A stretch of DNA of 64,000 nucleotides from Owenia fusiformis. Lineage: Eukaryota. Shown piece by piece: positions 8,742 through 59,100 of the stretch. The stretch lies in NCBI GenBank assembly GCA_903813345.2, contig CAIIXF020000001.1, positions 22,692,001 through 22,756,000 on the forward strand. The letters are read 5' to 3'. A program made the position numbers and the translations under genes. Within the stretch, counting starts at the first letter, position 1. The number at the start of each line of letters is the position of its first letter. The notes under the pieces are model-generated. The model had not been told where the DNA came from and searched no databases. It was given only the letters and a program-made list of their open reading frames with translations.

Positions 8742-8818
8742 AGAAAACATTGATACTGAAGACCTTCTTTTATAACTTAACCTAAACTCTAATTTGTGAA
8801 CAATTACCTATAACTGAT

Positions 8819-12295: not shown

Positions 12296-12745
12296 CAATA
12301 CAGTTCTTGTGATCTCTCAATACAGACTATGTACTTGTGACCTCACAATACAGACTATGTACTTGTGACCTCGCAATACAGATTATGTACTTGTGACCTC
12401 GCAATACAGACTATGTATTTGTGACCTCGCAATACAGACTATGTATTTGTGACCTCACAATACAGATTATGTACTTGTGATCTCACAATACAGACTATGT
12501 ACTTGTGACCTCGCAATACAGACTATGTACTTGTGACCTCACAATACAGATTATGTACTTGTGATCTCACAATACAGACTATGTACTTGTGACCTCGCAA
12601 TACAGACTATGTACTTGTGACCTCGCAATACAGATTATGTACTTGTGATCTCACAATACAGACTATGTACTTGTGACCTCACAATACAGACTATGTACTT
12701 GTGACTTTAAAATACAGATAATGTTCTTGCGATCACAATACAGGC
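12296..12745. repeat. 28-bp minisatellite, about 15-16 copies, just downstream of the SPATA6 stop
   Basis: Unit caatacagactatgtacttgtgacctc(a/g); period 28 (for example 12318 and 12346). Confidence 0.95.
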
Positions 12746-12999
12746 CATGTTGTGATTTCATAATACACTTACAAGACTTATGACCTCACAAAATAAACTG
12801 CAAATGTGTTCTCAGATACATACTGGATCTAAACCCTGATTTCACCTTATGATAAACATTGTTGGTGTGGCCGTGAATATGTTTTTCAAATGAAGAAGAG
12901 TGATTGTATACTGGAACAATGTACAGAGATCTTTGGCAGCTGATAGCACATCTAACTTGAGATAACCACATCAAAATGTGTGGTTATGGCTACAGTGAC

Positions 13000-27900: not shown

Positions 27901-30900
27901 ATTTATATCAACATAACTTTATTCATACTGGGGCAGATAAAAGATTTAAATGCGCATTCTGCACAAAATCATTTTGGCAAAGAAAACCTCTTGCAAAGCA
28001 CGTTGAAACACATATAAAGAAAAAGAGAAACTAAAAACTGGTTTACTGCTTCTGTTTACTGTTTATCTGTTTGTTTTTATGTATGTGATAAAAGACCAAT
28101 TTGTTATTGCTTGGATAGCACATTCAATAAAATGTAAATTGCTTTATATTTGAAGATTCAGTAAATTCATCCGATTTTTCAAAATAAATATACTGCTTTT
28201 ATCATTACATTTATATATACACTAGTATCTTGTTGACCTATATTCAGCACTGCATTGATGAATGGGGCACTTATTAGGGCCAATATGCCATATTAATTCT
28301 TCATCAAAATGGGTAATGGGTAACATTCCTTATTGTCGGTTTTTAATAAGCTGGCTTAGGGAGGAGACTACCTACATCCAGAAGCAAACAAAGGTAGTGT
28401 TTCGATCCAATGGGTTAGGATGATGATATTTATCCATGAATTTGTGGAGCAGTGGTATATTCAAACCTGGACCCAGTATAGAAAATGTTTCCTCAAAGTC
28501 TGCTGAATGTTCCAAATAAAACCAATTTACATTATATAAGTATGTTATTCCTATTTTAAACAATTGAACTTAGCCAGTAACAGTCGACAGCAGTTTGGTA
28601 CATTGCAAAACAATATTGGCGCTATTGTGGTTAAATGCAACTTCCAAATTTAAAATAATTTGCTGTTTCCAAGAAGAAAATTAAAATGAAATTATGACTG
28701 TTTTGTTAATAATGTAAGATTTGATATTTCTCTATTGTAAAATAAAACACTTGTAATAAAGGACAAAACACTGAGTACTTTTTCTGAATTTGATTTAATT
28801 GAGCTTAATCATCTTTCATCAGAGGAGTTTTCAGAATATGGCCACTGAATGAAAATAATAATGGAATTCTTCATGGTTCTACGGGATATGTTTATCAAAA
28901 ATAGAGTATCATGAAAAACATGCCACCATTTCAAATCCATCATTAATGTCAAGAGGAATAATCAAAAAAACATTTACAAGAATTCATCTCTTTAATTTCA
29001 GTACATTTTTGACAAAATAGTGTTATTGAAAGGGCTTTTAAGGATACATGTATTGGATTTTATAAATGTGCCCATAATTAAACCATTATTTCAGGAAGAG
29101 TCAATTGCCCTATATAAACTTATCGAATGAGCTAAATTCCCTTTAATACTCTATACTATATGAACTTTGAACTTTGTATACTGTTAAACTCAAGTGTATT
29201 GATATAGCCTAAGCAGTGGCATAGTTCTAGGTTATGTTGACAGCAGCTATTCTATGTATAGCCTTTATTGAGACATCTACTGCAACATATTCATTGTGAA
29301 AAGATATTTGTATAGCTACTAGCTAGTGACTGTAATACACTGTGCCCGCCACTCAGTAAAGTATGACATATGAACTGCAATCATTTGAGATATTGGAGCT
29401 TGCTAAAAGCCTGTACTAGTACATTTACATTGAATATTCTAGCATTGGTAAGTATTCAGTTTTAGTTCATATTTTAGGTAAAGATAAATTGCGCCACTTA
29501 CATCTACAAACTGCATGTGAGGCCATATCGAAATAAATTAATATTGGATGGAAGGGGGGATTGGTTATCTCGTTCCAAGACTATCTCTACGTTCTAGTCT
29601 TGCGAACGTCTTATTCTTTTGCCTGTATGATTACAACATGGAAGAATTTTCTACGCTTCTTACACTTAAGATACCTATTTCAATAGATTCCTTGGTATTT
29701 TAGCATTATTTTCGTGTAGTTGAATCCACAATTGTGTGGGTTTATCGGCAGAACAAAGAAATTTTCGTTTTTGATCCCAAAATTTGCGTGTAATATTTAA
29801 CTTGTTTCAACCGTCAAATTCTTCCATTTATTGCTTATCCGGCCCACTTCCGGGTCAGTCAAACGGGGAATCCCCTTTTAAATCCAACCGCCATCTTGGA
29901 AAGTGATGGAATATCTCTCGATGAAAAAAGAAAAAAGTTCCAATTCTGCCGATATACCCAAACAATTGTGGATTCAACTACACGAAAAGAATGCTAAAAT
30001 ACCCAGGAATCTATTGAAGTAGGTATCTTAAGTGTAAGGGGCGTAGATAATTTTCCCAAGTTGTAATATCGTACAGGCAAAAGAATAAGACGTTCGCAGG
30101 ACTATAGTCACGGGACGGGATAAGGGGATTGGATGGAGGGGGGATACAGTATATATAAGACATGATAAGACATGCTACTTGAATTTATTCTTATTTATTT
30201 CCCCCTCCATCCAGTATTAATTTATTTCGATTATTTTTTGTATAACGCATGGAAACTAACTTTAAAAAGTGAGCAATGTCATTAGTATTGTGATAATAAC
30301 GTCCCTTATACCTATTTATTACACGTCATGTAGACCATTGTTGCTCGATTTATAGCAAAAACATCGACTTTTGCATGTTGGTGATGAAACGCCTCTTTTA
30401 ATAGATCTCATATCTTAGAAGTGAGCGTTCATAAGCTCCTACTTTTAGCTATTTTTCAGTCACATTTTCAGAGGGCTAAAAAGGTTATTTCATCATGTTT
30501 AGGGTCATTCTGACCATTGCCATTGTGATCCTGGTCATGTAAATGATGGGGGCCCAATGATATGTGGAACTAGTTAAACTTACTGGAGGTCAAAACAGAC
30601 CGCTGTTATCTTGGTTTAAAAAATATCCAAAATCCAGCATGGTTTTGTCACTTTCTGTTTTGTCATTTCCTGTTAAGTACCATGGGACCTTAATGCATTT
30701 TAGATAAACCAGAAATTAAGATGACATCCTCAGATGAGACAAATAAGATCACATGCCTGGAGGAAGAAAAGCTACAAATAACTTCTTCAGATGAGATTAA
30801 TTCAATGGAACACCAACAGATAGATAGTCATAGCAAATTTGAACATTTAAGAGACAGACATTGGAGTGATTGTAAGTTTTTTATTGTGTTCAAGGCCAAA

Positions 30901-33900
30901 ACATATTCTATTTTCTCCCAAAGGGGACACTTCTCGTTTCAATGGCAAATTCTTTTCAAATTCTTTCAAAGGTTTCCTGTCAAGTCTTCTCTAAGATAGA
31001 ATTGTAGATTGAATATATGTGGGGGTACCATTAATTAGTGAGAAAAGAACAATAACTTTTTGAAATTTGCTTTAATTAATTGCATTGATATTTTCACCAA
31101 ATAAACTCCAAGTGATATGCTACATCCCATATAGTTTGATTAGTTAACTCTAACATATGGTGGTTTGAGAGATTTCTCTATGACATCATGACCAGTACCC
31201 TGGAGCAGTTATTAATGTAAAAAAACTGAGGATTTCATGTTTTATTTTCCAGGTCCTCTTTACCAAGATTGCTTTAAGGAATATGATCCGTTTAATCCTA
31301 AAGCTCTTGGGTCAGGATCTTCTGTACTGAAGTATACCTAAGTCCTGACATTATATAAAAATTAGTTATAGTGAATCTACCATAATTAGAAATCATATAG
31401 ATTGCTATGTATTTTATTAAGTTACATTGAGATCTTTGAGAATTCATGCTTATTTCAGCCAATTCTGCTCCACCCCAAAGTACTGCAAAATGGCAGTGTC
31501 TCTTATGTCACAGTCATGTGTGGCATGATATGCAAGATATGACATCAGAATTGGTTGTGTTGTCATAACAACTACCTCAGGACAATGTGTACACACAAAA
31601 TTTGAAAAGTAACAGTCAATTCTTAAAAAAACATGGTAAAAAGTGCCCTGGTTTCTCGTACTTTTTAGCTGTTCCACGGACCCCTAGCAACCGTTGCCAT
31701 GGTAACCGCTGTTGCAATGTATTTATTTGAAAAAATTAACGAGTATGCTCATTCAATACTCTATTCCTCAAGGGATGTATATACCAAATTTTATTGCAAT
31801 TGAATGAATACTAGGATGCTGCCTCAAAATTTTCTCACTAATTAATGATACTCCCTTGTACTATGAATTCTAATACAAAATGTCAATATAAGAACAGTAA
31901 TAATTGTGGGAGTATTCAAAGTAGTACATCCTTTTGCAGGTCTATCTTTCAGAAATGATCTAGGCAACAACAATGATCCAACCAAGATGATTAAAGATAC
32001 AAATGCTACAAAATTCCCACCTGATGTTATTGTGGAAAATACTAGCAAAGATGTAACCAATGATGACCTGACTGAGCAAGATACACACCCAGTTAGTGCA
32101 GATTTCATCAAGTCACAGGGCAATAGAGAAGAGAATGTCAATATAAAGGTAGAACCTGATCAAGTCAATGGTCTTGAAGATGAACATGATAATGTGGATG
32201 ATACAAACAGAGTTGACAATCAAGTGAAACAAGACATTAAACATGAACTTCAAAACTGTCAATCATTTGCTCATTTTGATAACACGGCTGATGAAAATAC
32301 TGAAACAATTGATGAAAATTCTGAAACGATGAATCAAAAGAACCCAACAGTATCACTTTGTAGATTATCAGAAGCAGATATAAAGCTTCTTAAGTCCAGG
32401 AAATACACCTCAAAGAGGAGAATATGTTCATTGATGTCGAAAACGCAACCAACTCTTAACCAAGATCACAAAGGAGAAAGACTGTTCAGATGTAACATAT
32501 GTTATGAAGCATTTTATGAAATCTCTAATCTTTCTAAGCACATCGCTGGACATCTAAAGCAAGCCAAGAGTAGTGTTAAAGCTTTTAAATGTAACCTATG
32601 CTCAAATGTATATACCCATGCCTATTATCTCGATTTTCATATCAAAATCCATTTAAATGGCAGAAAATTCAAATGCAAAGTGTGTTCTAAAGAATATCTT
32701 ACCAGATCTCACCTTTCTGCACATAATCTTGTTCATACTGGAGAAAAGAAATTTTCATGTAATGTTTGCTCTAAAACCTTTGCAACTACTTCAAGATTTA
32801 ATGCACATAAGAAAACTCATTCGAGAGAAAATGAAGACAGAAAATTTAAGTGCCAATTATGCGCTAAAGCATACTTCACAAAAGCAAGTCTTAAATTCCA
32901 CCAGAAAGTTCATGAGGAAGAAAAACAATTTCATTGTGATGTCTGTTCCAAAGCATTTAACCATAAAAGTCATTTCACAAGACATTTAAGAACACATACA
33001 GGAGAGAAACCCTTTAGTTGTAAAATCTGCAAGAAAGCATTTTCATGTAAGAAATCCCTTTCAATGCATAACAACATTCATACAGGTGAAAAGCCATACA
33101 AATGTAAAGTCTGCGAAAAGGCATTTAGACATCAAGTAAATTTGAGAACTCATAACAGGATTCATACTGGAGAAAAGCCATATAAATGTAAGATATGTTC
33201 TAGAGCCTTTTCACACAGTAGTCATGAACGGAGACATCAAAAGGTTCATACAGGAGAAAGAAAATATGAATGTGAGACATGTTTCAAAAGATTTGGAGAC
33301 AAATCATCTCTTAAAGGTCATTACAGAACTCACACAGGTGAGAAACCATTTCAGTGTAAGATTTGTTTGAAAGCCTTTTCTTCATCTGGCATTTTAAGAA
33401 CTCACACACATATTCACACTGGTGAAAAGCCATTTAAATGCAACATTTGTGAAAAAGCCTTTTCTAACCAAAGCAGTCTGTGTACACATAGAATTATCCA
33501 CAATGAGGAAAAAGAATTCAACTGTCAGGTCTGCTTCAAGAAATTTTCTTCAAAAGTACACCTTGTAATGCATAACAGAATCCATACAGGAGAGAGACCA
33601 TTTAAATGTAAACTATGTCCTAAAGCATTTCATACAAGTTCAGCCCTTACTTGCCATAAACGAAATCATACTGGAGAAAAACCATTCAAATGTAAGTTCT
33701 GCTCAAAAACATTCAAAGTATGTTCTAATTTGTTGATGCATAAAAGGCTTCATACTGGGGAGAGGCCATACAAATGTAAATCATGCCCAAAAGCATTTTA
33801 CTGTACATCTCATTTAATTAAACATGAAGTTGTTCATACTGGGGCTGATAAAACATTTAAATGTTCATTTTGCACAAAATCATTTTGGCAGAGAAAACCT

Positions 33901-36900
33901 CTTGCAAAGCACCTTGAAACACACATAAAGAAAGAGGAAAACTAAATACATTCTAATAAATGTATCATGACAAGATCTACTTCCTTTTTAGCTTCAACTT
34001 TCTGTTTGTTTTATGAGATATAAGTTGACAAAAAGAATAGAAACCTTGTTTCGATCATGAGAAAAAAACAATTGAAAAAAAAATTATGACAATTTTTCAT
34101 TTCTTTGCTACGCATTTAAATACCATTTTTAATCTACTTATTAAGTGTAATATTAAAAACATATTTACTTTTCTTTAGACATTTTAATATAATCATTTGG
34201 ATGAATTTTCCCATTGGATTAACTATCCTCTTGTAAATTATTTCAATGTGATTTGAAATAATGTGTATTTAAAGAGGCAACAAGGTCTGTAGAGAGAAAA
34301 TTCAAAATTTTTTACTTTTTCCGAGCTATCAGGGCAACATTTGACTTAACATCTTCTTTGACATATCTATTTCCTTAAAATGTATGGATGAACTATCAAT
34401 TTCAGCATTAAGAAGTGTAAATTCAGTTCAAAGCTTCTATAAAGGGAGTCCCACTTATTGATTTTTAGCATCAATCATGTTTCAAGAGGACTATCAGCTG
34501 AAATAATGTTCATCGACGGGGTTTCTTTGGAGAAAATAAAAATATATGTTTGTCTTGATGCAATATCAAAACTTGAATATATTTTGACACTGGTCCATAT
34601 CGGTTAATGGCCCCTCTGCACTAATTGTTGCACCTTTAAATGAATGAATTCATGAGATTTTCTTAATGAACTGATCATCTACAAAAATATTTCCATATAT
34701 TCAATCTTGGATTATACATATTTCTAAATAATCTAAAGAGACAATTGGTCATTTAGGCAAAAAGAGCTTACAGACTGTTTAAGGCTTATTCTAAATCTAC
34801 TGGTACCATCCAGATCCCATCATAAAGTAAAGCCAATGATATTACAATGCAAACAAATGGTAAAGGGTCTGGATATTACCTGTGTGACATTGCATCGTTA
34901 TAGCTGTTTGCTATCTATTGTTAATACATGCATACAGCAAGACCTGTGTGATCTTAATACCAAAAAGGCCAGTCAAAATTGATCGAATTGGCAGATTCTC
35001 ACATTTTAAGATTCTTTTCACGGACATTTGTGGCAGATTAGGAAATGGGACTAGACTAAAAAACCATTCACATCAAGAGATGTTTAGATTAGGCAGGTGT
35101 TCAGGCACACAGGTTTTTCTGTGTTAAAGGTTAAACAGTAACATAAACAGTAGATTGGTGTACTACAAAACAATACACGTGTGCAGTGGCCTCATGCATT
35201 ATTGATTAAAACAAACACAAAAAAAGTAATGTTGAGAAACCTATAATACACATTTTCTCATATTGTTTCCATGAAATCAATAGAATAAGAATGATAGCAT
35301 TAGAATATAAATGTTCTTTGAAAGCCTTGTGGCAAATAATTCAATATGAGGTAAAAGATATGTTGAACATTTGATTGGCTCAAGAATGAATATTGTATAC
35401 TGTGTTTGTATCATATTTTATTGTGTAATATTGGGTGATTGTTTCTAAACATGAAATGAGAACTCACTTTGCCTTTTAATTGATGTAAGAATATTTCTCA
35501 TGCTGTGACAAAAATTCCTTTTTTAGTAATTGCTTTTCAAAAAGGATATATTGTTTTGTATTTGTTTTCAAATGTTTTAACCAGAACAACGGCAACGCCA
35601 AAGCGTAGCGAATCCCATCGAACAGAAATAGCTGGCATTTTTACAAACGAAATATATAGCAAATATCATAAAATGACACACATAAGAAAGTTGTCATCAG
35701 AAGAAGTAATATGCTTTTTTATAGTATTCACATGCCAAATATGAACAAAATCGCTCCACTACTTTTCGGGTTATAGTAAAATACTTTAAAATGGTGGCCA
35801 TTTTTCAAAATGGCCGCCTTCTACCAAAAGTGTCATAAGACAGTGTGCCATGCTAATAGTATTCGAATACCAAATATGAACAAAATCGCTCCACTACTTT
35901 TCAAGTTACAGCAACAATCGTAAAATAACGAGTAAAGGCCGAGTAAAATACGTTTAAATTTTTCAAATTCCATTTTTTGTCATCAGAAGAAGTAATATGC
36001 TTTTTTATAGAATTCCAATGGCAAATATGAACAAAATCGCTCCATTACTTTTCAAGTTACAGTAAAATACTTTAAAATGGTGGCCATTTTTCAAAATGGC
36101 CGCCTTCTACCAAAAGTGTCATTAGACAGTGTGCCATGCTTATATTATTCACATACCAAATATGAACAAAATCGCTCCACTACTTTTCGAGTTATAGTAA
36201 AATACGTTAGAATGGCGGCCATTTTTCAAAATGGTCACATTCTACCAAAAATGTCATTAGACAGTGTGCCATGCTTATAGTATTCACAAACCAAATATGA
36301 ACAAAATCGCTCCACTACTTTTTGAGTTGAAGTTAAAATGGCGACCATTTTTCAAAATGGCGGCAAATTTTCAAAATGGCGGCAAATTTTCAAAATGGCC
36401 TCCTCCTACCAAAAGTGTCATTAGACAGTGAGCCATGCTTATAGTATTCACATACCAAATATGAACAAAATCGCTCTAATACTTCTTGAGTTACAGCAAA
36501 AATCGTAAAATAACGAGTAAAGGCCGCCATTTTTCAAGATGGCTGCCATGTGCTATTTTAATTTCTACATTTCTAGCTTTATCAATGTCCTATATAATTT
36601 TTTTACATTTAAAACATAATGCTATCACAGTTTTACATATTGCACCTAAATTACTGTAAAATCGGCACTAAAATGGCCGCCATTTTTAAATGAGTGGCCA
36701 TTTTGAAAATCGGCTTTTAAGCAGAACTTCTACCCCCATAGGGTATATGTTTACAAAATATGAACAAAATCGGGCCAACGGTATTTGAGTTATTGCCCGG
36801 ACGGACGGACGGATGGATGGACGGAGGCGTTCCCTATATCCCTCCGAACTTCGTTCGATGGGATAATAATGAGACCAAAGGGCAACATTTGGAAATAACA

Positions 36901-42900: not shown

Positions 42901-45900
42901 ACTAGGCCTCGACACCAAGGGTAAGAAAATTGTTTTAACTTACAGTGCTTGTCATGGCCAGGTCACTATTATTAGCATCATAGTATGTCTTGGTTTGTTT
43001 GATGGTTGTCTTTGTGGAAAACTCTACTTTTGGTGAGATGCCCTGCAAGAATAGAGTAATTACAATTAAGACATTTTCAAACTCTACTTTTGGTGAGATG
43101 CCCTGCAAGAATAGAGTAATTACAATTAAGACATTTTCAAACTCTACTTTTGGTGAGATGCCCTGCAAGAATAGAGTAATTACAATTAAGACATTTTCAA
43201 ACTCTACTTTTGGTGAGATGCCCTGCAAGAATAGAGTAATAATTACAATTAAGACATTTTCAAACTCTACTTTAGGTGAGATGGCCTGTAAGAATAGAGT
43301 AATTACAATTAAGACATTTTCAAACTCTACTTTTGGTGAGATGCCCTGCAAGAATAGAGTAATAATTACAATTAAGACATTTTCAAACTCTACTTTAGGT
43401 GAGATGCCCTGTAAGAATAGAGTAATTACAATTAAGACATTTTCATTCTGTATATTATAAAGAAAAAAGATTGATGGTATAATAAATGTATATCCTTGCA
43501 ATGTTTTTGCTTACTTAGTTGATATTACTGTTTGAAAATTACAACGAGGCATCAATGAGGCAAAATGTCACCACCTCAAAAGTGTGACAACCGTTACTGA
43601 GAGGCCATAACAAAAACGGAAAGTATGGAATGCTATTTTTTCTTCAATAGGTAATATTTTGTAATCAGAATGTCTACTCAAAATTTATTCAGACACTGAT
43701 CGCTGATTGCCAAATATCAACTGCGGAACACCAACTGCCAAACACAGCCCACAAAAAGTTGAAGACTATAACAATACATGTACATGTATGTCACCACTAG
43801 TCTTGTGGTGATGACATAATAAGAACATGTGAAGCTTCACTTCTATTATGGACTATTTCACTTCATCTAAATCAGTGAACTGTAAGACTCACAGGAAAGT
43901 CTATAGTCCTCTCCATGAGAAGTTCTCTATCAGTTGTGCCATATACAGGACCATAGGTGGGGTATGGGTACAGGAACTCCCTGGCATTCTCCTCATATGT
44001 GGCTAGCACACGGCCCACTCCATACTCTGACACTTGTATCAGCTCCATCATAACATGTTCATCTACAAAACAAATCACAATAGGCAATATTAGATAAACA
44101 CAATATAAGTCAAACTCCTGTTATATAACAAAAATATACATTTGCAGAATGGCATTTATTTTTTTAATTTAGAGCCCAGAAAATGCATGTATTGATAGTG
44201 CAAAGAAACTGTGATATATGTTATCCCTGACTGTATGCATTGTAATTATAGACCTCAGCTTTACTCATCAAGTATTCTTACCTTCTAAAAGCTCAGATAC
44301 AAAGGCAGGATCTAATGCAGTGTAATACACCTGAAAAGTGAAAATAAACTTCATGAATAATAATTTTGTTGAGTAATTCAATAAATCCTCCTACAAAAAG
44401 GGATTTTTTGATAGAAAGTAAACTAATTTCATGGTCGGACTATGTGTTTGAGGATAGATGATTTTCATGGATTGTAAATTGCAAGTTTTTAAAGGTACTG
44501 TAATTATTATGTGATTGAATCTTTTATTATTGTAATGTGACTTCAACCTTTAAATATGAGTGTGTCCTTTCACTAAATTGATCCAACTAAACAAGAACTT
44601 TCACTGTTTTAGAATTGACAATGGGCATATGTGCACATATTTCAGGCCCGTAGCCAGGATTTGCCAAGGGGGGGTTCAGTTTTCAAAAATTTCCAGGGGG
44701 GGTCACATTTGACAATTTTGGCACAAATATGGCTAAAATCACTTGAGAAGTGCTCAAAATGATGAAAACTGCATGATTTGAAGGAATTTTTGGCCAGGGG
44801 GGGGGGAGTTCGCACGAACCCTGCAAACCCCCCCTGGCTACGGGCCTGTATTTTATACTCTACCTTTTCAAATCTCATTTTCTCATGTATGAGCAATGGA
44901 AATACAGGGGTAACTAATTGAGATCTCCTATGTTGTCCAAGAAGACACACACTGATATAGACGTCATCTCTCCGTTGTAGCCACACCCCTGGGGCTGTAA
45001 CCTGCAAAAATAAACAATTGATGAGTCAATCAATTTGTCTCTGGATATATCTATTGCTAGTTGTGGGAGAGGGAGTTGGTATAAATTAAGAGTCACTGTG
45101 TTTCTTATATGCACTCATGTTAAGGCAGGACAAATTATAACCAATAATGCTGGTTGTCCTTATCGTGCATTGTCCACTTTCCCTCTGGGTCATGAGCCTC
45201 AGTTGACATTTGACAAGCAAAAGGGGCAACAAGGACTGTAGAGAGAAAAAACATTTTTCTTTCCTAGCTTTCAAGTCAATATTTGGCTTAAAACCTTCTT
45301 TGACAAACCTATTTTCTTTAAATGTATGTATAAACTATCAATTTCAGCATCAAGAAGTGTTAATTCAGTTCAAAGCTTCTATAAAGGGAGTCACACTTAT
45401 AGATTTTTAAGATTCACCACATTTCAACAGGAATATCAGCTGAAATAATGTTCATTCAGGGGGTTTCTTTGTAGATAATGAAAATATATGTTAGTCTTGA
45501 TGAAATATCCAAACTTAAATATATTTTGACACTGGTCGATGCGTACCCAGCTTACCGGGTGCTACGCCTATATGCATAGGAAACAATCATCAACATCCTG
45601 TCAATCACTCACTTGTAGGCAATAAACCAAGCAACTAATGTCACCTTACGTTAAATGACAGATAAACTGCAATTAATGTATGTGTGTGCATATTCGTCCA
45701 CATTTGTTTAATTTCTAGCAGAAATCGCCTCCTCCCCATGCTTTTATTTTGTTTGATTGACGACCATGATATTGGGTTATATCGAAATAATAAATATGGA
45801 TGTTTTTTGGCCCACCCTGTTTATTAGGGTAAAATGTGCAACTATGAATGTTGTTAACTCTACTAGGAACGTAAGGTACCCAGTCACTCAGCTACCCGGT

Positions 45901-47125: not shown

Positions 47126-50100
47126 ATGAAACTTTTGATTTTGATTGTCGCTGTTTTTGCTGGCGTTATTGCCGATGACGACCATGGTAGTAATGCAGTT
47201 GTGTTCACAAGGGAAACCTTTAGTGATGCTGTAACAAGTACACCTCACTTTGTCATGTTCTACGCACCATGGTAAGCATAAAAAGGTTTCAAAAAGGGTA
47301 AACATTAAAAAATCGAAGATTTGTAAAGTCATTCGATATTGGGCCGATATTCCATCATCAGGTTACACTATACAATCATATACTGATCATAACATCCACG
47401 CGTTGTTTAAGTGGAGTTTTTTTCATGAGAGTAATATTTTGAAGCAAAAACACTTTTCCTACTCCTTGTTAACTGTTAAAAATAATAAGAACATAACTTC
47501 GACATATGAGTGTTACCTGATGAATGGGACCCTCACGTGCCTTCTAAATGGTAGTAAACGAACGCTAGTGTAACTACATCAGCTTATCTTTCCGTCCGAT
47601 CAACAATAAGTACAGTTATACAAGAAATGTAAACGAAGTGAAAATATTTCCAAAACTTTTCCGAAAGGCATGTCATTCCGGAAGTTATGATACGTTATGG
47701 TGTCACTACGGTAAATCATTGAAAAATATTGAAAAAAATCACAAAATTCAAGTTCTGGTGTGAGGTTCCATATCCATCCGCCAAAAGGTATGACCCGATA
47801 TAGTCCATTTAAAAATTTTAATTTTGTTCTAAATAACACCATAGTTGGCTTCTACAATAAATGGACGCTGATATCTCAAAAAGAATTAGCCCATACAATG
47901 ACTATATTTTTGCAATCCCCTATACATAACCTTCATCTTGACACTATATTTAACATAGGGTTTGTGTCTCGATTTTTAAATATCGCTACGCCAACATAGG
48001 GACTCATTTTTAGGTAAAATCCCTGCTTCCCCGATGAATAAAGTAGTTCCTGTTTGCGGGACCATATTCTTGAGATTTTTTGCTAAAAATGGCACATTTA
48101 GAAAGTACTTGGCCTCAGCTTTACATAAATACCTCAAATGGCCACAGTACATACACTTAAACCTACTATACACACCATTGAAGTTGGCATTGCTTCGTTT
48201 TTAAAGTATTAATAAAAAACACTTCCTACCCGGAAGTGATTTTTACCGTAATAACACCTTATATTACCGAACATGGGTTTAAATGGAATGTTTTTTCGAT
48301 GGCATTATTACACCAAAAGTAGTGCGAAAATGGCCTTTTCACGGGTTGGCATAAAGTTTTGATGAAATTTAAAGACACAGTTCCTCCTTCACGTATATTA
48401 TCTCATGGAAATGGGCATACCAGCGCAAAGATCTTTGTTCCGTGGTGAAGAAAAGCTATCAAACATTGTCTGAAGAGCAGATTTATCTCCGTAATTCAAC
48501 TTTTAGCATGGCGACCTTGACCTTGAAAAGAATATAGCCATTTGGGCGATAATAGGTGATTCAAAAGTAAAAAATAGTGCTTTTTTGAAGTTTTACTTTT
48601 ACCATGTCAACTTGATTTTTCAAGGACATCCGCCTGATAGTTGTTGGGCCAAGTTTGATGGAAAATGGGCCTTGTTTGATATGCTGGCAGTGAGGTTGAT
48701 TGTGGCAAGTAGTAAAACGGCAAACAATGGTGGAGTCATACCCGATGCTTGGATGTTCGCATTTTATTTAGCTCTCGTAAAATGAACGAACAAAAGTTCC
48801 ATTTTCACTCTTGTTCGATAATATAACGTATCATAACTTCCGGAATGACATGCCTTTCGGAAAAGTTTTGGAAATATTTTCACTTCGTTTACATTTCTTG
48901 TATAACTGTACTTATTGTTGATCGGACGGAAAGATAAGCTGATGTAGTTACACTAGCGTTCGTTTACTACCATTTAGAAGGCACGTGAGGGTCCCATTCA
49001 TCAGGTAACACTCATATGTCGAAGTTATGTTCTTATTATTTTTAACAGTTAACCAGGAGTACACAAAAACTTTACAGAATAAAATCAATTGTGCACTAGG
49101 AAATGGGGCGGTGTTAGTCTACCGTTACTTACTCACTTCGAGAGCCATGTTAGATTTTGAAACTTATGGCTCTCAAACGGAGAAGTGAACAGCTCATCAA
49201 TAGTGACCTTTGAAATCGAATTAAGTCGATCCGTGGCTTACTTTTGGTCTCTAACTGTGTCTTACATAAGTATCATCAATCCGTGTAAGTATTGGAGCGC
49301 TGGAGTACTTCTTTTTCGATCAAGACTTTACTAACCAATCCATCCTTATAACGTAACATATTTTCTATTGTTTAGTGAATTTTGGTCACGAACCGTTCAG
49401 AAACAACAGTTAAAACGAATATTGTCCACGTCAGTTTTGATTGTTCGGCAGGGAAACCAATGGGGTTAGTACACAACTAAGCCCCGGGTATTAAATAAAG
49501 CCCTTGATTAAAGCAGATATATAATTTAACAGTGATAGAATTTGAATAGAATAGAAAACATTAACATTTAAAAGTAGATCTATGGTTTACAACTCATTAA
49601 AAATTGTAAGGCAACTTCCTGGTTGGCAATGTACCCCCTGGGAATTCCCTTTATGTTGGGATACCCTGGGACGACTCTTAGGCTACCGCCTTGACATCGC
49701 CCCTCTTTACCAGTAGTGCAGGCTGTTGCTGTACACTGGGGACCATTTACATTAAAACATTACTGTTCCATATGAGGTCATTTTGACCTTGACTTATTAT
49801 ATTTTTAATGTTAATTTATAATGTTCTTTAATCACATTGTAATATACTCTATGTCGCACAGGGCTTTCACAACCTCCCCCTTATACAAATTTGCTGGCTG
49901 TGGCAGCCAGCTGTCAATGTGCTTTGACAGCACATTGAAATGTACCATGCAAATAATACTAGTGTAACGACCCTTGATACCAAGTTGCTACTACAGTCCA
50001 GCTGTAGTGGCTTAAGCCTTTATAGCTCAGTCGGTAGAGCATCAGTCTTTGGATTCAAGGGTCCTAGGTTCGATTCCTAGGTTCGATTCTTTCAATTTCT

Positions 50101-53100
50101 TTATCTGGCTTGTTACACTATGCTCGTTAGTTAGTCATTCCCCTGGGGCGCCCTCGGGTCTTTATATTGGTGTCAGAAGTGGGATCAGAGCATTGGTTGT
50201 ATCCTTTGCGCCCGTGTGTATATGGTAGTCACTGCTAGGGAAGCAGGGCTGACCACGAGGGCGTGGTCCTTTCAAAGGGGAGATAGTGTAACGACCCTTT
50301 ATACCAAGTTGCTACTACAGTCCAGCTGTAGTGGCTTAAGCCTTTATAGCTCAGTCGGTAGAGCATCAGTCTTTGGATTCAAGGGTCCTAGGTTCGATTC
50401 CCACACAGGGCATTAAATTTAGCACACTTTCTTTCAATTTCTTTATCTGGCTTGTAACACTATGCTCGTTAGTTAGTCATTCCCCTGGGGCGCCCTTGGG
50501 TCTTTATACTAGTATGCAAATGAGGCTGTAAAGCAGTGTCACAGCATCCTCTCCCAATCCTATGACAGCCTGTGGCTGTGAGAACATTGTTCCTGAAATT
50601 GACCCAGCCATCATTTCAAGCCTATATGCAGTCACAGCACTGTCATGGCAATTATTTTCCGTAAAGGCCATATGTCACTGAATATAAAAATGAGAGCAAA
50701 TAAGTAAAAAAGTCTTGATCAAAATCTATAATATTTTTTCTGTGCATAAAATAAATGAATTGAAATAAAACAATTGCACTTTGGAAAAGACATTGACAAA
50801 CATACTTTTAGATTATTAAAACTCTTTCCTTTTATAATATTGAGGGATGTTTGAGAAAAAATCGGAGGGGCAAATCAAGAGCTGAAAAATTAAGACCAAA
50901 TTTGGATTCATACAGAAATACAGGAAATATCAGGATTTGTAAGCATGCTTAGAAAATCTGAGAATACAAATTTATTTGTCCTAGAAAACTTAAATTTACA
51001 TTATTTTCTTCATACAGTACTCAATATTTTGAAGTTTTATGAAACAGTTAAGGGTAAATGAGGCAATATCGGAATTGGCAAGGAATAACATTTGAATGAG
51101 AACATTGTAAGAAATGGTACGGTTTTCTGATGAAATTTACAGTATTTCCCTCTAACTGGAGCTGAAAACAGCAGTTCTTATTTTACAATACAGTGTTCAC
51201 ACTTATCAAAACAAATATCCTTCAAATGGTCAGAGTCAAGATATGTGGAAATCCATTCATCCGAGTCCCTTGCTAGGAGCTCTCTAAATTTGAAATCACC
51301 CTCTTTAAATAAAATACCACACAGAATAAGAGATAAGAACCATCTTTATGAAAAGCCATCAAACCGAGTTGTGAAATTGAAAGATTCCAAGTCATGGAAT
51401 CATGAAAAATCATATCTTCAGTTCCTACCAAATGTAAACTTTAGAATGTTATATGTTTATGTCTACATAAGTGATTCAATTCAATTTCTAACTTGTAGGT
51501 GTGGTCACTGTAAGAGATTGGCACCAACATGGGATGAACTTGCTAAGAAGTTCAATGAGGAAGCCAGCATTATTATAGGCAAGGTACAGTACATACAATA
51601 ATATTTACAATTATAAAGCTTATATTTTACCTTACCAGAAGGATTTTACTCCACTTATACTTAAATTAGAATAGGTTGAGTATTTGACAGATATAAATAT
51701 TGGAACAATTTCTCAGTTTATGTAGAAATTTTGTGTATACAGAGATAGGATTGCCATGGTGAGGGAAAAGTCTATTTGTTATCATTGATAATGATAGTAT
51801 AGATTAAATGCCATCTTAAATCTTGATGTCAGCTCCCAACTGTGGTCTCTAAATAAAATAAGTAAAAATGCAATGTATTGATCATTAGCATTAATACATG
51901 TACTGTGCTATTATCTGCTTTACATATCAGGAACAGATTGAGTATGTAGTACAATCTAATATGCTTCATATATCATTATCCCAACGAACGAAGTTCTGTA
52001 GGGATATAGTGAAGCCCTCCGTCCGTCAGTCTGTCAGTCTGTCAGTCTGTCAGTCTGTCAGTCTGTCAGTCAGTCCATCCGTCTGTCCGGAAGATAACTC
52101 GAATACTAGTGGACAGATTTTCTTCATATTTGGTGGAACAATGTATACTGGTCAATAGTTTTACGCAAGATGGCCGCCAGTTTAAAAGTGGCGGGAATTT
52201 TTCGCAAAAATCTTATGTTTTTCATTTTAAACTAAAATAATAAATATTATTAATTGAAATTTAAAAAAAAGTAAGAGTGGTAAACCGAAAAGCAGGAAAA
52301 ATTTGCTCGTAAAAGATAGTAAAAATCAGTGAAATAAAGAACATTATAAGAAATATATTGAGATACAATGATTCCTAAGATAGTGGAGCATCTGATCAGT
52401 GAACTACAAGAAGAAGGGTGCATCCTCGGAGGATATAAGATAAACGCAACAAACAATGGAACATCTATCACATTGCAATATGTAGTACACCATCTTGGTG
52501 ACCCAAGTTCAGGAACTAGAAGCAAATCACCAAGTAGGCTAATGAGAGACACAAACAGGATTAGTGCTTTCAATGCCAGTAAAAAAATAGTGAGTAGTGT
52601 TCCAAACCATGAACAAATAGGATTACATGAACAGTCAACACCTGTGAAACCTGGTCAAAATACATATAGTGATGATGTGTTTATCAATACTGATAACAGT
52701 CAAATTGTAAACAATAACACTGATACAGAGAATTCACCAAATACAGAAGACAGTGGATTTACTTCATTATTACAGACTCCCCAGGACAGAATCAACAAAG
52801 TAAACACAAGTACACAAACGGATAATAAAGTGAAGAGACACCAGTCTTGCGCAACAGAACTTAAGATGAAACATGTCGCAACTAAAACAGACAATATGGA
52901 CAGAAAACATAGAGGCTGCAATGTAAATATTAAGAAACAGATGGACAACAAATCAACTGAGTGCAAAATTGATAAAGATACCAAAGAAACAAACACAGAT
53001 TCTGATACGACATGCGATGTTGCAGCGCTAACAAACTTCAGTATGGCAACATGTGAAGGGAAGTATATGCGCTTCATTGATAAGATCGGAGAGGATTATA

Positions 53101-56100
53101 TGTAATGTTGTGATGTCCATGACTACATAATGATGAATATGAACAGAATAATACGGAAATAGGAACGTGAACATATATAACAAATTGTGCCAAGTACTAT
53201 TGATTGATTTAAATGTTAATTGGACAAAATAGGTACATATTCGCAATAAATGATCCAGATGATGGGATGCAAATGATTCTTGTCAAAAATGGTTGAGTTA
53301 AGACTGTGAAAATTTTGAGAACTCTATCTATCTGGAATTCCAGTAGTTTTTGAGGAATAACATTATTTCACTTTCTAAGCTTAAAGTTTTAAGACTACTA
53401 TCAAGAAAATCTCTATACATTTGATAATTCCTATGTAGAATATGTTATGTTAATATGTTATCTAGAAAGGAGAAATAAATATCTATATATAAAAAAAAAA
53501 AAAAAATTAATTGAAATTTTGGTAGTATATTAACAACATCTATCTATTTCACACATATCCCGGGTTTTTCACCCTGACCCCCAGGGACCGTAAATGGGGG
53601 ATCGGGAAAACAGGAATTTGCATTAATTTTGAGATGTTTTTGAAGTATAGCTTTATTATACTCAAATGAAATGCAATTTAGAGGAGATTGTAAATATTGT
53701 AACGTTTTTTTGATTCGGGCCTCAAAAAATTCAAAATGGCCGCCCAATGCGGGATTTCACAATTATTTTCTTATCTCCTCAAAGTATGGCTATATTATAC
53801 TCAAATTGAAGGTATTTCAGAGTAGATCACAATTATGGCATTGTTTTTCTGATTTGCGCCTCTGAAAATTCAAAATGGCTGACTAGAGCAGAAATTTGCA
53901 ATTACTTAGAGTTATCTTGAAAGTATGGTTACATGATAGTACAATGATTTAAAATATTTATTGAAGGTAAGAGTAGATGGTAAATATTACATTGTGGCTG
54001 TACAGATTGATGATTTACTTAAGTATATAGTGTTCGTTGGGATTTGCTACTCCGTGGAGTTGCCATTTTCTAGTTTTATGTGCATTATATTTCAATTATT
54101 CAAGAGAATATTGATTTTTCCATATTTTTTATTTCGATTAATTAGAAAACCATTACAAATTTGCATTTACACAAAAGATTGTCAATCAATAATGAGGTGT
54201 TTAATTCAACATATGATTAATGCATAAAAGTTAGAACAATGTTTCTGTTTTTTTAAATAATTTATTTAAAGGCAGAATCAGATCTATAGGGGATGACAAA
54301 GTTACAAGCAACATGTACAATTGACCTACCAATCTATTCCTTACAATCTCAAATACAAAATCTCCAAAAATATCTTTGATACATTATAAATTGGTGAAGT
54401 TATGATGGATTAAAAGTGCAAAAATGGGTTAAAAATGTTTAAATTCTCCCAAATAATAAGAATGGTAACCATTCTTATAGAAAAATAATACATTGTTGTA
54501 AAAATCTTTAGTTTTCCTGAAATATGAAAGTGTGTACTTTGGGGATTTTTAGAAAATAGACATGAAAAGGAATGACAGAAACCAGAAATAATCTAAAATT
54601 GAAAGAATTTTTTTTTTGTTTGTTTGGCTGCTCGCTATATCCGATTCTCTCTTTAACCTAGGGTGCACAGTTTTACACTATTATACCCCCTTTTTTGAGA
54701 CGAGGAATTTGCTTTGTGATTTGATTTTTTCTGATGATATTTTGTGTATCAGACAACTACTGTTAAAGTGAATACTTTTTTTAAATTAATGAATCTAAAC
54801 ATTGTTACATTGAGCAAGATGTTACTTTTGTCTTTCTGTATTTATGAATAAAAATTTATGTTAATATATTTAAAGCCTTAAGAAAATTTTATGTAGCAAA
54901 CTGAGGACCAATTTAGATAATCTACCTTGTGTATGACAATATGAGAAATCAGTGTAAGATTAGAAATGGTGTAAGATGAAAAATGGTGTGAGATGAGAAA
55001 TGGTGTAAGATGAAAACTGGTGTGAGATACAGTATGAGCTGAGAAATAGTGTGGAGATAAGAAATGGTATGAGACAAGAGGTGATATGTAATAAAAAAAA
55101 TGGTGCAGGGACAGTGTGGATAGTTAGTATGAGATGAAAAATGGTGTGGAAATGGTGTGGGTGAGAAAGGTATAAAAATATGGTGTAGAAATGATCAATG
55201 GTGTGTGATTAGAAATGGTGTAGAATAAGAAATGGTGTGAGTTAAGAAATGGTATAAGAAATAGTTTGAGATGAGAAATGGTGTAAAATAAGAAATGGTG
55301 TGAGTTAAGAAATGGTGTGGAATTATAAATGGTGTTAGTTGAGAAATGGTGTGGAATAAGCATGAATAGAGAGACATTCTGCTACATTCTAGTTGTTGTA
55401 TTGTTACATTTGACTGTATTGTTATATTTAACTGTATCTTCAGGTTGATTGTACTATTGAAACAGCGTTGTGCTCAGACCAGGGAGTTCAGGGATATCCC
55501 ACGTAAGATAAAAACTTCTCATTTGAATTTGCGTTGTACCCCTACCCCTTCTGTCTCCTCCCTTCCTGATTACACTAGGGAAACTTTAACATATTATTTT
55601 GAAGAAATTATTGTCCTTTTGAATAATAATAGAAGCATTGTAAAATGCAATTATTATTTTTGTATGTTTCAACTGGTGAAAATCGCCTGTTGCCTGCTGT
55701 TAATGAGATCCCTGAGATTGATATTTTCACATTTGATGCAGAGGACTGTCAGTTAAAATATTGATTCAGGATTCAATATTGTTTTTACCTCATTAGTTTT
55801 TGTGGTGGATTGAAATATATCTATATTTGATTTGATCTCCTTGATTTTAATACATGTGTAAATCAATCTAATTCAAAAATAAACAATGTAAACATGATGA
55901 AACTGCAAAAAGGTCAAAGTAATGTACAGGGTGGTCAAAAAAATGAGAACTCTTCATTTTCCTCATATCTTTGTCATTTTAGGGAATTACTCTCGGATAT
56001 TTCACACATTTGCACATCATTCACGTTCCTACCACACTATTATATTTCATGACCATCAGACTGATAGTCACAATTTTACAGTGCTTTGAACAACATGCTT

Positions 56101-59100
56101 CAAGTTTGGGCATTATCCCGCTGTAGTCAAACCTGCAAAGTTGTCAATGACCCGAATGCATTCCTCGGCAGGTATGGCCTAAATGACACAAATGATCTCA
56201 TTTTTTAGGTCTGCAATTGTCCTTAGGTCATTCTCGATCTCATACACTACTCTTTGCCTATCCCCACTGGTAGGGACCTTTTGGACTACATGTGCAGGTT
56301 TGCCGAAAGCACAATAGTGGCCACTGGGGCATGTTATTTAAAATGTTGTTACATTGTGACTCTCAATCTGATGGTCATGAAATAAAGTAGGCTGGTAGAA
56401 AATTGAATGATTTACAAATGTGTAAAATATCAAGGAGTTATATCTTTAAAAATGACAAATAACATGAGAAAAATGGCGTAAGGGTTTCCATTTTTTACCA
56501 CCCTGTATTATTGTGATTTACATCTTTGATGTACCAATTACATTGTGGGTACCACATATGCAAAAGCTGTAGGACCAGGCTCCTTTAGAATTCACACATA
56601 TCTCCTATACAAATTAAAATGTTTTCAAAATGTGGATGATATAAATGTCGATTATGTACTATAAAGAATAAGGTCTCATATAAAAAGTTTGTTTTTCAGA
56701 CTGAAGTTCTTCAACAAAGCAACTGAAGGAGTGAAGTACAAGGGACAAAGACAGATTCCTGAGTTTGAAAAGTTTATGAAAGAGTCATTAAAAGCCTCTG
56801 CTGAGAAAAAGGTATAACCACTTGAATGATTTATCTCGTTATACCACTTGTAGTATTTAGGATTATCCAAATTTCTATTCTTGGAACAAAAATATTTTGA
56901 GGTAGAGCAATGCCATTTTATATCTAAAATTTCAAAGCTCAAACTCGGTGTCCATTTTTGTATAAAACACTTAATTTCAAAGCACTACACAATTTTTCTG
57001 GTGTTATTTTGAATATAACTTTATATGGTTGCACATGTAGTACTATTTTGATCCTTTCTCCTTCAGGAGGCTGAGGTCCCCGTTGCTACAGATGAGGCAC
57101 CTCCAGCAGTACCTGAAGCTAAACATGGTCTCTATGAGCTCACAACTGACACATTCAAGTCCCATATAGAAACTGGCTATCACTTTGTCAAGTTCTATGC
57201 CCCCTGGTGTGGACACTGCAAGACCCTTGCTCCTGTGTGGGACCAGCTTGCTGAGACATTCGAACATGTAGAAGATGTCACAATAGCAAAGGTTTGTGGA
57301 TAGAGATATTTATACAATATCAATGTTTTGAGAGTTGAAATCATTGAATACTATTGATAAACTGTATCTCAAACAAAATTAACTATCACATAATACTGTA
57401 AAACACGTATTATTCCCGTGCATTTAATTTTCGCGATATTCGCGAGGGGCATTCCACTCGCGAAAATAATATGTAAGTGAAAATTAAATGAATTACAGTT
57501 GAAAGAAGTTAACCTAAGATTGCCGGTTTACCGGAAGTGATCGTATAGATGAAGTTGGAGGTCAATTGTATCAAGGTGTAATGAAATTATACTCATAGTA
57601 GTTCTTAAGTGAAGCAAAGCAGAGTATAGCGAGTCATTTCATGTAGTAGATGTAATTAGATAGGCTGGAATCGGCATTACAACTGTATACATACATGTAT
57701 GTCTACTCACGAAACTTCAGTCAGTCTGACTCTTTGGTTTATTATATCAGAGTCCAGACGATGGGCATTCGTTCAATCTCCCGATAAGTAATTATAATTT
57801 GGTGGTCTCCAAACCATACTTAAGTTACGTTTATCAAAAATAGTCCATAATGAATGAAATAATGTTCTAGTTAAGAATTGTTTTGGCATTTACCAAAGAG
57901 GGTTTCTGCGCAGGTTTTCTGCGCATGTCAAGGGAGGTCAAGGTCGTGAACTTTCTTGTTTATTTTTTAAAGTTTTCCTTATTCTCACGACTCTTACACT
58001 ATGTTTACGCGAAAATGATGATCTATCATTAGATTAAAAACATAATTTTAAATCGATATCCAATAGTCTTTAGTGGAAATAATGAATATCAAATCGGGGG
58101 CTCTCTCTGGGAAAAAAATCCTTCAATTCGGCGGGGGATCTTCTGGGAATTTTTGCATATCGCGAATATAATATGTAGCAATTTGACCCGGGGGTGGCAC
58201 TCTCGCGAATAATGCATGTAGTAGATATTAAGTGTTTTACAGTATTCTATTTTATTGATGTTTTCCATCATAACCTCAATGCATTATATTGTAGAAATCA
58301 ACCTTACCCAGAAATATCTTTCATGTATTTAAAACAATTAATCTGATGCAGGGGTACAAACAAGATCTCGGGGTACTGGGTTTGTTTAGCAGTATTATGA
58401 CTAAGACGAAGGCAATGTATATAACTGAGCTCAGCGGTATGATTACCACAACACAGAGCCTAAAATGCTCACTGTGACATCTGTACTGTGACATCTGTAC
58501 CCTTGTAATACAAATGTTCAGTCAATTTGTTTATCAATGTTTGTACATACACACACCATACACTTGTTTTCAGGTTGACTGTACCCAGCATGGCAGTGTA
58601 TGTCAAGGTCAAGGGGTAAGAGGCTACCCAACTCTCATCTTCTTCCAAAATGGGCAAATGGTAAGTCATTTCCTCTTAAACTACTTTTTATGTCACCACA
58701 AAAAGTGGTGACATATTGTTATGGTCTCCTTTTTTGTGGCGGCGATTGGTGTTCTGGGTTCACATTCAGTGTTTGTAACAAATGGCAGGTAGTGACATTT
58801 TGCATGCTAATACTGTTTCTATTATCTAGGCTAATGCAAATGTTCAGTCACCTGATTTCATATGTCATAACTTATTTTGCATTATATATCTGTCATATTA
58901 ATGAGATGTATATTATTCAAATGAGAGGCATAAGTAATAGCCATATTAACAATGCAAACAAGAATGGTATACTCCACTTGTCATTAAATAAATATCATGC
59001 ATGTAAAGGGCAAATCAATTAAACCTCCTTTAAGAATTAAAACTGACGATAAAACTATACTAGTATGTGTAAAACATTGCCATGCTTCATTGAAAGATGG

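Follow-up and report, generated by a model that had tools for sequence, protein, structure and literature searches.

The 64,000-nt stretch of Owenia fusiformis DNA analysed here (assembly GCA_903813345.2, contig CAIIXF020000001.1, positions 22,692,001 to 22,756,000 of the forward strand; hereafter the window, numbered from its first letter) contains at 49963-50508 a genuine non-coding miniature long terminal repeat (LTR) retrotransposon of 546 nt, a so-called TRIM (terminal-repeat retrotransposon in miniature). Each of its two LTRs carries a decayed tRNA which keeps the A and B boxes, and the family in Owenia fusiformis comprises hundreds or more relatives, some of which have no A box. The element is apparently a member of Helenus (TRIMp3), and apparently the first one from an annelid. 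As an overall explanation we consider it probable that this is a Helenus-type TRIM transcribed by RNA polymerase III (Pol III) and copied by a Gypsy-type helper.

The two LTRs are direct repeats in the same orientation, offset by 324 nt, which both start with TGTAAC and end with TTTATA. Repeat finding divides the pair into blocks of 118 nt (99%) and 85 nt (95%), and blastn of LTR against LTR gives 89% over 222 columns with the gap included. In a global alignment there are 3 substitutions at 194 comparable sites (Kimura two-parameter distance 0.0156), with a rearranged block outside the count, in which a 13-nt tandem duplication in the 5' LTR replaces about 30 nt of the 3' LTR. The word depth at the rearranged junction (50077-50082) is 83.6 in DNA run X1 and 50.6-74.9 in DNA run X3 (both described below), which equals that of the single-copy flanks; the rearrangement thus belongs to this locus alone and took place after insertion. 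The features of the element are listed below.

49959-49962, plus strand: left target-site duplication (TSD), CTAG; read directly, identical to 50509-50512, and at exactly 49963 other copies pass into unlike flanks
49963-50166, plus strand: 5' LTR, 204 nt; from repeat finding, blastn and alignment, with the private rearrangement at about 50075-50089
49987-50018, plus strand (3' LTR copy at 50311-50342): hairpin in the unique 3' region (U3) with an 11-bp stem and the loop CCA; overlaps the palindrome GGCTTAAGCC and lies just upstream of the tRNA-like start
50016-50080, plus strand: tRNA-like cassette in the 5' LTR, with its 3' side cut short; A box at 50023-50034 and B box at 50067-50077, from Rfam RF00005 and a pattern match
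50168-50185, plus strand: primer-binding site (PBS), TGGTGTCAGAAGTGGGAT; complement of tRNA-Leu(CAG), starting one base after the 5' LTR
50251-50268, plus strand: internal stem-loop GACCACG-AGGG-CGTGGTC; perfect 7-bp stem and 4-nt loop, 5 nt ahead of the purine tract
50274-50283, plus strand: polypurine tract (PPT), AAAGGGGAGA; read directly, with TAG next and then the 3' LTR
50287-50508, plus strand: 3' LTR, 222 nt; from repeat finding, blastn, alignment and depth, the copy that represents the family
50340-50412, plus strand: tRNA-like cassette of full length in the 3' LTR; A box at 50347-50358 and B box at 50391-50401, from Rfam, ARAGORN -ps90 and the pattern match
50509-50512, plus strand: right TSD, CTAG; read directly, and one contig (X1 record 8) bridges the 3' junction

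The interior (50167-50286, 120 nt) begins with a T followed by the PBS and closes with the PPT and TAG; the sole stop-free stretch across it, 50135-50413, has no match in Pfam. Within the window the PBS matches once when up to 3 mismatches are allowed, and a match occurs in 2 of 100 shuffles. The first 17 nt of the PBS are exactly complementary to the tRNA-Leu-CAG 3' end, the sequence of which was taken from PMC10886601 (Fig. S2) rather than from the host. Both of the hairpins are recovered by folding: the internal stem-loop is present in the minimum-energy folds of the whole interior and of 50244-50275, and the U3 hairpin in its 3' LTR copy folds at -16.3 kcal/mol (z -2.49).

Two direct repeats alone would also fit a locus with no retroelement at all, in which two copies of a short interspersed nuclear element (SINE), or the two halves of a local segmental duplication, lie 324 nt apart in direct orientation. 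Against such a locus stand the exact 18-nt tRNA-Leu PBS one base past the first repeat, the purine tract 3 nt ahead of the second, the CTAG/CTAG flanking duplication, and an interior that is repeated hundreds-fold and collinear with LTR pieces in other contigs, and we give this explanation practically no chance.

The tRNA model of Rfam (gathering score 29) matches the 5' LTR cassette at 50023-50080 with 31.2 bits, over model positions 8-63 only, and the 3' LTR cassette at 50340-50412 with 26.3 bits over the whole model (positions 1-71), which is below the gathering score. The A-box/B-box pattern at tRNA spacing occurs in two places only, which are the two cassettes, and in 0 of 100 shuffles. 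ARAGORN with default parameters calls no tRNA in the cassettes, while with -ps90 it reports 50340-50412 as a pseudo-tRNA (Lys|Gln) whose anticodon has 2 bases. In addition, the cassettes fold no better than shuffles (z -0.19 and -0.44), and the one in the 5' LTR lost its 3' acceptor side through the locus-private rearrangement. A functional tRNA gene was therefore rejected, given the missing default call, the score of 26.3 bits against 29, the 2-base anticodon loop and the shuffle-like folding; the cassettes are a decayed tRNA in which the A and B boxes are kept. A further, older tRNA-like fold where the LTR begins, called 'Trp(cca)' by ARAGORN only at -ps80, was too weak and was not used. The cassette is presumably similar to tRNA-Lys(UUU), and the relaxed ARAGORN call is Lys|Gln. 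The alignment of molluscan Helenus to tRNA-Lys-TTT in PMC10886601 agrees with this presumed likeness.

Most of this anatomy had been proposed by a sequence-only reading of the window made by a model. The direct repeats of 204 and 222 nt with their TGTAAC starts, the 120-nt non-coding interior, the 4-bp TSD (ctag) and the 18-nt tRNA-Leu PBS one base past the 5' LTR all hold. The PPT, which it had placed directly against the 3' LTR, is there, but 3 nt (TAG) lie between the two. It had also described a tRNA-like cassette in each LTR with intact A and B boxes and a broken anticodon stem, expected to score as a pseudo-tRNA; this agrees with the ARAGORN results, except that in the 5' LTR the 3' acceptor side of the cassette is missing as well.

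Copies of the family in public reads

By blastn, both LTRs and the interior have no second copy inside the 64-kb window. We therefore describe the family from public runs of the same organism aligned on 49600-50900, namely contigs of the DNA runs X1 and X3 and raw reads of the RNA runs X21 and X23. The word depths in the DNA runs, the sums of which are not equal to copy numbers, are as follows.

Flanks: about 76-84 (X1), about 62 (X3)
Interior: 16.7-17.8 thousand (X1), 22.8-37.9 thousand (X3)
Cassette, 50304-50391: 28.8-34.9 thousand (X1), 73.4-85.3 thousand (X3)
LTR tail, 50392-50435: 262 thousand (X1), 365 thousand (X3)

These depths show a repeat that exceeds the single-copy level by hundreds- to thousands-fold. 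The depth of the cassette is about 360-440 times that of the flanks in X1 and 1200-1400 times in X3, and 70-75 distinct contigs cover position 50379. Loose ends fall precisely on 49963 in 48 and 47 contigs (agreement 0.46) and, in X3, after 50164 (29 contigs, agreement 0.44, range 50164-50166), indicating that other copies stop at the same ends and then continue into unlike DNA. Moreover, a paralogous contig (X1 record 2) is collinear with 50087-50312, which covers the LTR end, the PBS, the whole interior and the LTR start, with 31 other letters and 6 gaps. Taken together with the loose ends, it indicates that other copies share both ends and the short interior. The sequence-only reading had made its case depend on other copies with the same ends and independent 4-bp TSDs; the loose ends at 49963 and after 50164 come from copies with the same ends. 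At this locus itself, X1 record 8 is the sole contig that bridges a junction, the 3' one, with 41 nt inside and 308 nt outside; X1 is possibly the source sample, and the bridging contig says nothing on polymorphism.

The family also helps to place the boundary of the element. From the sequence alone the TSD could be 4-7 nt long, since ATACTAG is common to both sides. With the majority letters of other copies at 50161/50503 and 50165, the LTR end and the TGTAA start are inverted repeats of each other, and the boundary gives a 4-bp duplication. This family-level LTR end favours a TSD of 4 nt, and one of 5-7 nt was rejected on its account. An LTR that ends at G(T)TAACA (50112-50117 and 50454-50459) was likewise rejected, since the repeat continues to 50166/50508 and other copies diverge only past 50164.

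Outside the element, the sequence before 49963 is shared to some extent: the DNA loose ends end in the same last ~15 letters, and the RNA loose ends agree at 0.88. As many relatives, above all those seen in RNA, share at least 15 letters there in place of random flanks, part of the family, including many A-box-less copies, is embedded in a longer conserved unit. A 25-nt cassette word and a 37-nt LTR-tail pattern had 0 matches in public metagenome and genome contig collections.

The family is also a caution for genome annotation: pseudo-tRNAs with intact A and B boxes, carried by LTRs in their hundreds, can make tRNA counts too high, and they may bind TFIIIC genome-wide.

Relation to Helenus and other small elements

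Helenus comprises TRIMs with tRNA-derived sequence in their LTRs (Kojima 2024, PMC10886601). In animals they have 4-bp TSDs, Gypsy-like PBSs and lengths of 311-1263 bp, their tRNA-derived part is conserved around box A (TRGCY...YGG) and box B (GGTTC), and they were reported from six animal phyla, Annelida not among them (PMC10886601). The element shows the whole structural set, that is, size, tRNA-derived LTR part, PBS, PPT, 4-bp TSD and multiple copies with the same termini. Its 546 nt fall within 311-1263, its LTRs begin with TGTAAC and each contains a tRNA part with A and B boxes, its PBS for a tRNA 3' end lies 1 nt past the LTR, and its 4-bp TSD is as in animal Helenus. The TRIM with tRNA-bearing LTRs described in the sequence-only reading, which had pointed to Helenus for comparison, is borne out in this respect. 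In the literature searched we found no report of Helenus from annelids, and for TRIMp3 the sole relevant paper found was Kojima's (PMC10886601), which makes it plausible that the family is undescribed for this species, as had been suggested. In the accessible part of the Owenia genome paper only pipeline repeat annotation is described, and its repeat library could hold the family unnamed. The range of Helenus/TRIMp3 is thus apparently extended to Annelida.

Further apparent likenesses lie outside the tRNA core. The interior has the purine end ...GGGGAG(A)TAG, and the tract of the element resembles the ...GGGAGTAG interior ends of several bivalve Helenus. By eye, a U3 hairpin plus a palindrome before TTTAGCTCAG are present in published LTRs, and a hairpin, a short palindrome and TTTAGCTCAGTCGGTAGAGC are common to nemertean, oyster, scallop and coelacanth LTRs. 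Nearest by eye appears the scallop group (Helenus-2_ArIr / 1_PeMa / 3_MiYe); it has no TTTT past the cassette, as here, and the 10-mer ATTAAATTTA past the cassette was found in one published Helenus LTR only, the scallop Helenus-2_ArIr. The PBS matches those of Helenus-1_AcRu / 1_PolSpa (sturgeon, paddlefish). The CG-RGGR-CG apex of the stem-loop before the PPT was seen by eye in published Helenus interiors as well, at least 20 of them from bivalves, wasps and coelacanth, and also in a nemertean and a sturgeon one; the apices sit on differing, mutually complementary stems. The main text of PMC10886601 nowhere uses 'hairpin' or 'palindrom'.

The element also differs from published Helenus in several ways. 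When 12 words of 10-17 nt from this copy were compared with the Helenus supplement, 3 of 12 were found, all in the tRNA core, and nine were absent, although line breaks in the FASTA text may hide some of them: TGTAACGACCC, GGTCTTTATA, TCAAAGGGGAGA, GGCTTAAGCC, CCAGCTGTAG, AAGTTGCTAC, TTCGATTCCCAC, TTTCAATTTC and TTCCCCTGGGG. The absence of these nine words indicates that the element is no close relative of a published Helenus family. A tRNA-Leu(CAG) PBS is known for vertebrate and wasp Helenus and not for the bivalve families, and the LTR of the element extends 49 nt beyond G(T)TAACA, where other Helenus LTRs end. It is a matter of speculation that the longer LTR reflects a shift to a PBS further downstream, by which the U5 part was lengthened. 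The other differences are the host phylum, Annelida, and an abundant relative without the A box.

Other small elements share one part or another of this design. A tRNA-derived SINE (SINE2) has a tRNA head with A and B boxes, decayed structure and high copy number like the present family. SINEs, however, are without LTRs, PBS and PPT, and are copied at their 3' tail by the machinery of long interspersed nuclear elements. The LTR pair, the PBS, the PPT and the 4-bp TSD rule out this identity. Ordinary TRIMs (TRIMp2, e.g. the bivalve TRIMs of PMC6934838) resemble the element in two short LTRs, a short non-coding interior and mobilisation in trans, and differ from it by having no piece of a small-RNA gene in the LTR. 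Cassandra, a plant TRIM with 5S rRNA in its LTRs, and Ajax, a nemertean TRIM with a 5S promoter (PMC10886601), are alike in that a Pol III promoter from a small-RNA gene lies inside each LTR of a non-coding TRIM. Theirs is 5S-derived, whereas here it is tRNA-derived, and Cassandra keeps a Pol III terminator in its LTR (PMC10886601), whereas here there is no TTTT. No Rfam match to 5S or a ribozyme was found in 49500-51000 at an expectation value (E) up to 10, which rules out a retrozyme as well as Cassandra and Ajax.

The tRNA piece could have arrived by a chance insertion of a tRNA-SINE into one LTR of an ordinary TRIM, followed by copying to the other LTR within a single lineage. SINE insertion is the origin that Kojima proposed for such elements (PMC10886601), and there are many LTR-like copies without part of the cassette. 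The sequence-only reading had named a cassette missing from most LTR copies as the mark of this history, and half of that picture was found: the LTR ends are deeper than the cassette, and a form without the A box exists. Yet the cassette itself is far above single-copy depth (about 360-440 times the flanks in X1, 1200-1400 times in X3, with 70-75 contigs at 50379), and the hairpin-palindrome-tRNA layout upstream and ATTAAATTTA downstream are common to Helenus LTRs of other phyla, so the cassette is older than this family. We regard an insertion in this one lineage as very improbable.

Proposed transcription and mobilisation

Pol III transcription is expected for TRIMp3 and is so far undemonstrated for Helenus (PMC10886601). 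For the present element, we hold with high confidence that it is a Helenus-type TRIM mobilised in trans, and are inclined, by a small degree only, to believe that its template RNA is made by Pol III rather than by Pol II or read-through. The element contains 17 TTT in its 546 nt and no TTTT, so Pol III could read through it to the first T-run of the flank, at 50655. TTTT is absent in 1 of 2000 shuffles of the whole element, a figure inflated by the LTR duplication.

The proposed life cycle has four steps. Pol III would initiate near 50016 in the 5' LTR. It would then read through the PBS, the interior, the PPT and the 3' LTR and stop at the flank T-run at 50655, giving an RNA with the repeated (R) region at both ends. 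In the third step, this RNA would be packaged by the Gag and Pol of an autonomous element of Gypsy type, itself primed by the same tRNA-Leu(CAG), and the stem-loop 50251-50268 beside the PPT is the best candidate for the recognition signal. Finally, tRNA-Leu would prime the minus strand and the PPT the plus strand, and integrase would insert the product with a 4-bp duplication. From the interpretation given in the sequence-only reading, the structure stands, while neither a Pol III start nor the Gypsy partner was found.

Several observations weigh against this account. The first group concerns relatives without the A box. A junction that joins 50004 to 50391 (50004>50391) takes 62 nt out of a single LTR, the A box among them, and leaves the B box in place. 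It is found as a joint in 4 contigs of X1 and 1 contig of X3, loose ends lie before 50391 in 22 and 28 contigs, and it is crossed by 53 (X21) and 81 (X23) RNA reads, exceeding the depth over the cassette. The depth at both LTR ends exceeds that of the cassette 3- to 9-fold. Relatives that lack the A box thus exist and are better represented in RNA reads than the cassette form. The second group concerns transcription. There is no pile of RNA read starts at 50016 or 50340 in the two runs, which are standard complementary DNA (cDNA) RNA-seq. Reads placed on the aligned stretch number 396 and 418, of which only 3 and 7 are at least 99% alike, and the flanks have no reads. In shuffles of the non-redundant 342 nt, TTTT is absent in 124 of 5000, that is, only ~2.5%. 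Finally, no reverse transcriptase or integrase of an autonomous partner was found in the window, the 4-bp TSD was read in the copy 49963-50508 alone, both LTRs of this copy end in TA while most copies differ from it at 50161/50503 and 50165, and the likeness to published Helenus beyond the tRNA core was assessed by eye only, on excerpts of the supplement.

These observations could be accommodated by the same TRIM family with a cassette that is a relic, in which Pol II starting from the LTR, or host read-through, supplies the template and the spread is independent of the A box. Most junction-spanning RNA reads come from A-box-less relatives (the 53 and 81 reads over 50004>50391), the LTR ends are several-fold deeper than the cassette, no read starts at 50340, and the RNA loose ends ahead of 49963, with their agreement of 0.88, suggest that one or a few copies lie inside longer Pol II transcripts. 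But in both LTRs the A and B boxes match exactly and have the right spacing although the rest of the tRNA has decayed, TTTT occurs nowhere in the element, and the position of the cassette and its boxes are kept in Helenus of six phyla. Moreover, the RNA libraries used are unable to judge Pol III products: standard cDNA libraries catch these poorly, and the absence of read starts is not firm evidence on Pol III. In X23 there is one 'end' of 5 molecules at 50342. A relic cassette seems to us a possible but rather unlikely alternative to the Pol III-transcribed Helenus-type TRIM.

Because the hairpin-palindrome-tRNA layout is common to other phyla, we read the cassette-bearing form as ancestral and the A-box-less form as a deletion derivative, a direction that is unproven. 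Since forms that have the A box and forms that lack it occur side by side, the family could serve as a natural test of whether spread requires the Pol III promoter. Likewise, the U3 hairpin and the stem-loop on the PPT side give a handle on how a TRIM stays recognisable to its helper, which is an open question in PMC10886601.

If the U3 hairpin-palindrome and the CG-RGGR-CG apex are homologous among these elements, most animal Helenus might go back to a single, very old TRIM-Gypsy partnership or might have crossed between phyla, instead of having arisen many times. The stem-loop would then be the pick-up signal of the helper, and the A-box-less derivative may in this annelid have out-amplified the promoter form, which would make the Pol III promoter dispensable for spread. 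We put this forward tentatively and think it doubtful as a whole; it draws on motifs common to annelid, bivalve, nemertean, wasp, sturgeon and coelacanth elements, with stems that differ by paired changes.

Neighbourhood in the window

A different repeat family lies at 49644-49775, 190 nt upstream of the element, with a word depth up to 45 thousand (X1) and 73 thousand (X3). Its RNA reads are mostly of the opposite mate strand (strand uncalibrated), and the sequence between this repeat and the TRIM is single-copy. Downstream, exons of a multi-thioredoxin-domain gene resembling protein disulfide isomerase (PDI-like) are located on the plus strand at 51480-51598, 57052-57300 and 58478-58708. The TRIM is ~1 kb upstream of the first PDI-like exon and ~5 kb from SPATA6 exons on the minus strand, which places it between two divergent genes or in an early intron.

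Further genes are found elsewhere in the window. An exon-like open reading frame at 7772-8029 encodes mitochondrial ribosomal protein L55, with 98% identity over 77% of its length to an Owenia fusiformis protein. A complete intronless frame of NPRL2 (a GATOR1 subunit) with 405 codons occupies 8786-10003 and has at most 65% identity to any named protein. In a quick tree it forms a long branch and groups weakly with annelids and nemerteans (Shimodaira-Hasegawa-like approximate likelihood ratio test, SH-aLRT, 92 and 82); it may be a retrogene or a fast-evolving copy. The L55 match and this grouping make Owenia fusiformis, or a near relative of it, the most likely host. Two adjacent single-exon C2H2 zinc-finger genes, which are paralogous and have the same layout, lie at 25788-28031 (748 codons) and 31867-33942 (692 codons), and the N-terminal part of the first had no relative in the protein database at E 1e-5.

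Repeats of other kinds are also present. One dispersed repeat occurs at 16077-16774, 36022-36399 and 53643-53904 as short tandem arrays with units of 135-147 nt containing AAAATGGCGGCCATTTTTCAAAATGGCCGCC. A minisatellite of 7 x 60 nt lies at 43019-43445 among the minus-strand SPATA6 exons, and is open on both strands by chance of the repeat. Two more minisatellites are located at 750-1262 (7 x 73 nt) and 12306-12750 (16 x 28 nt).

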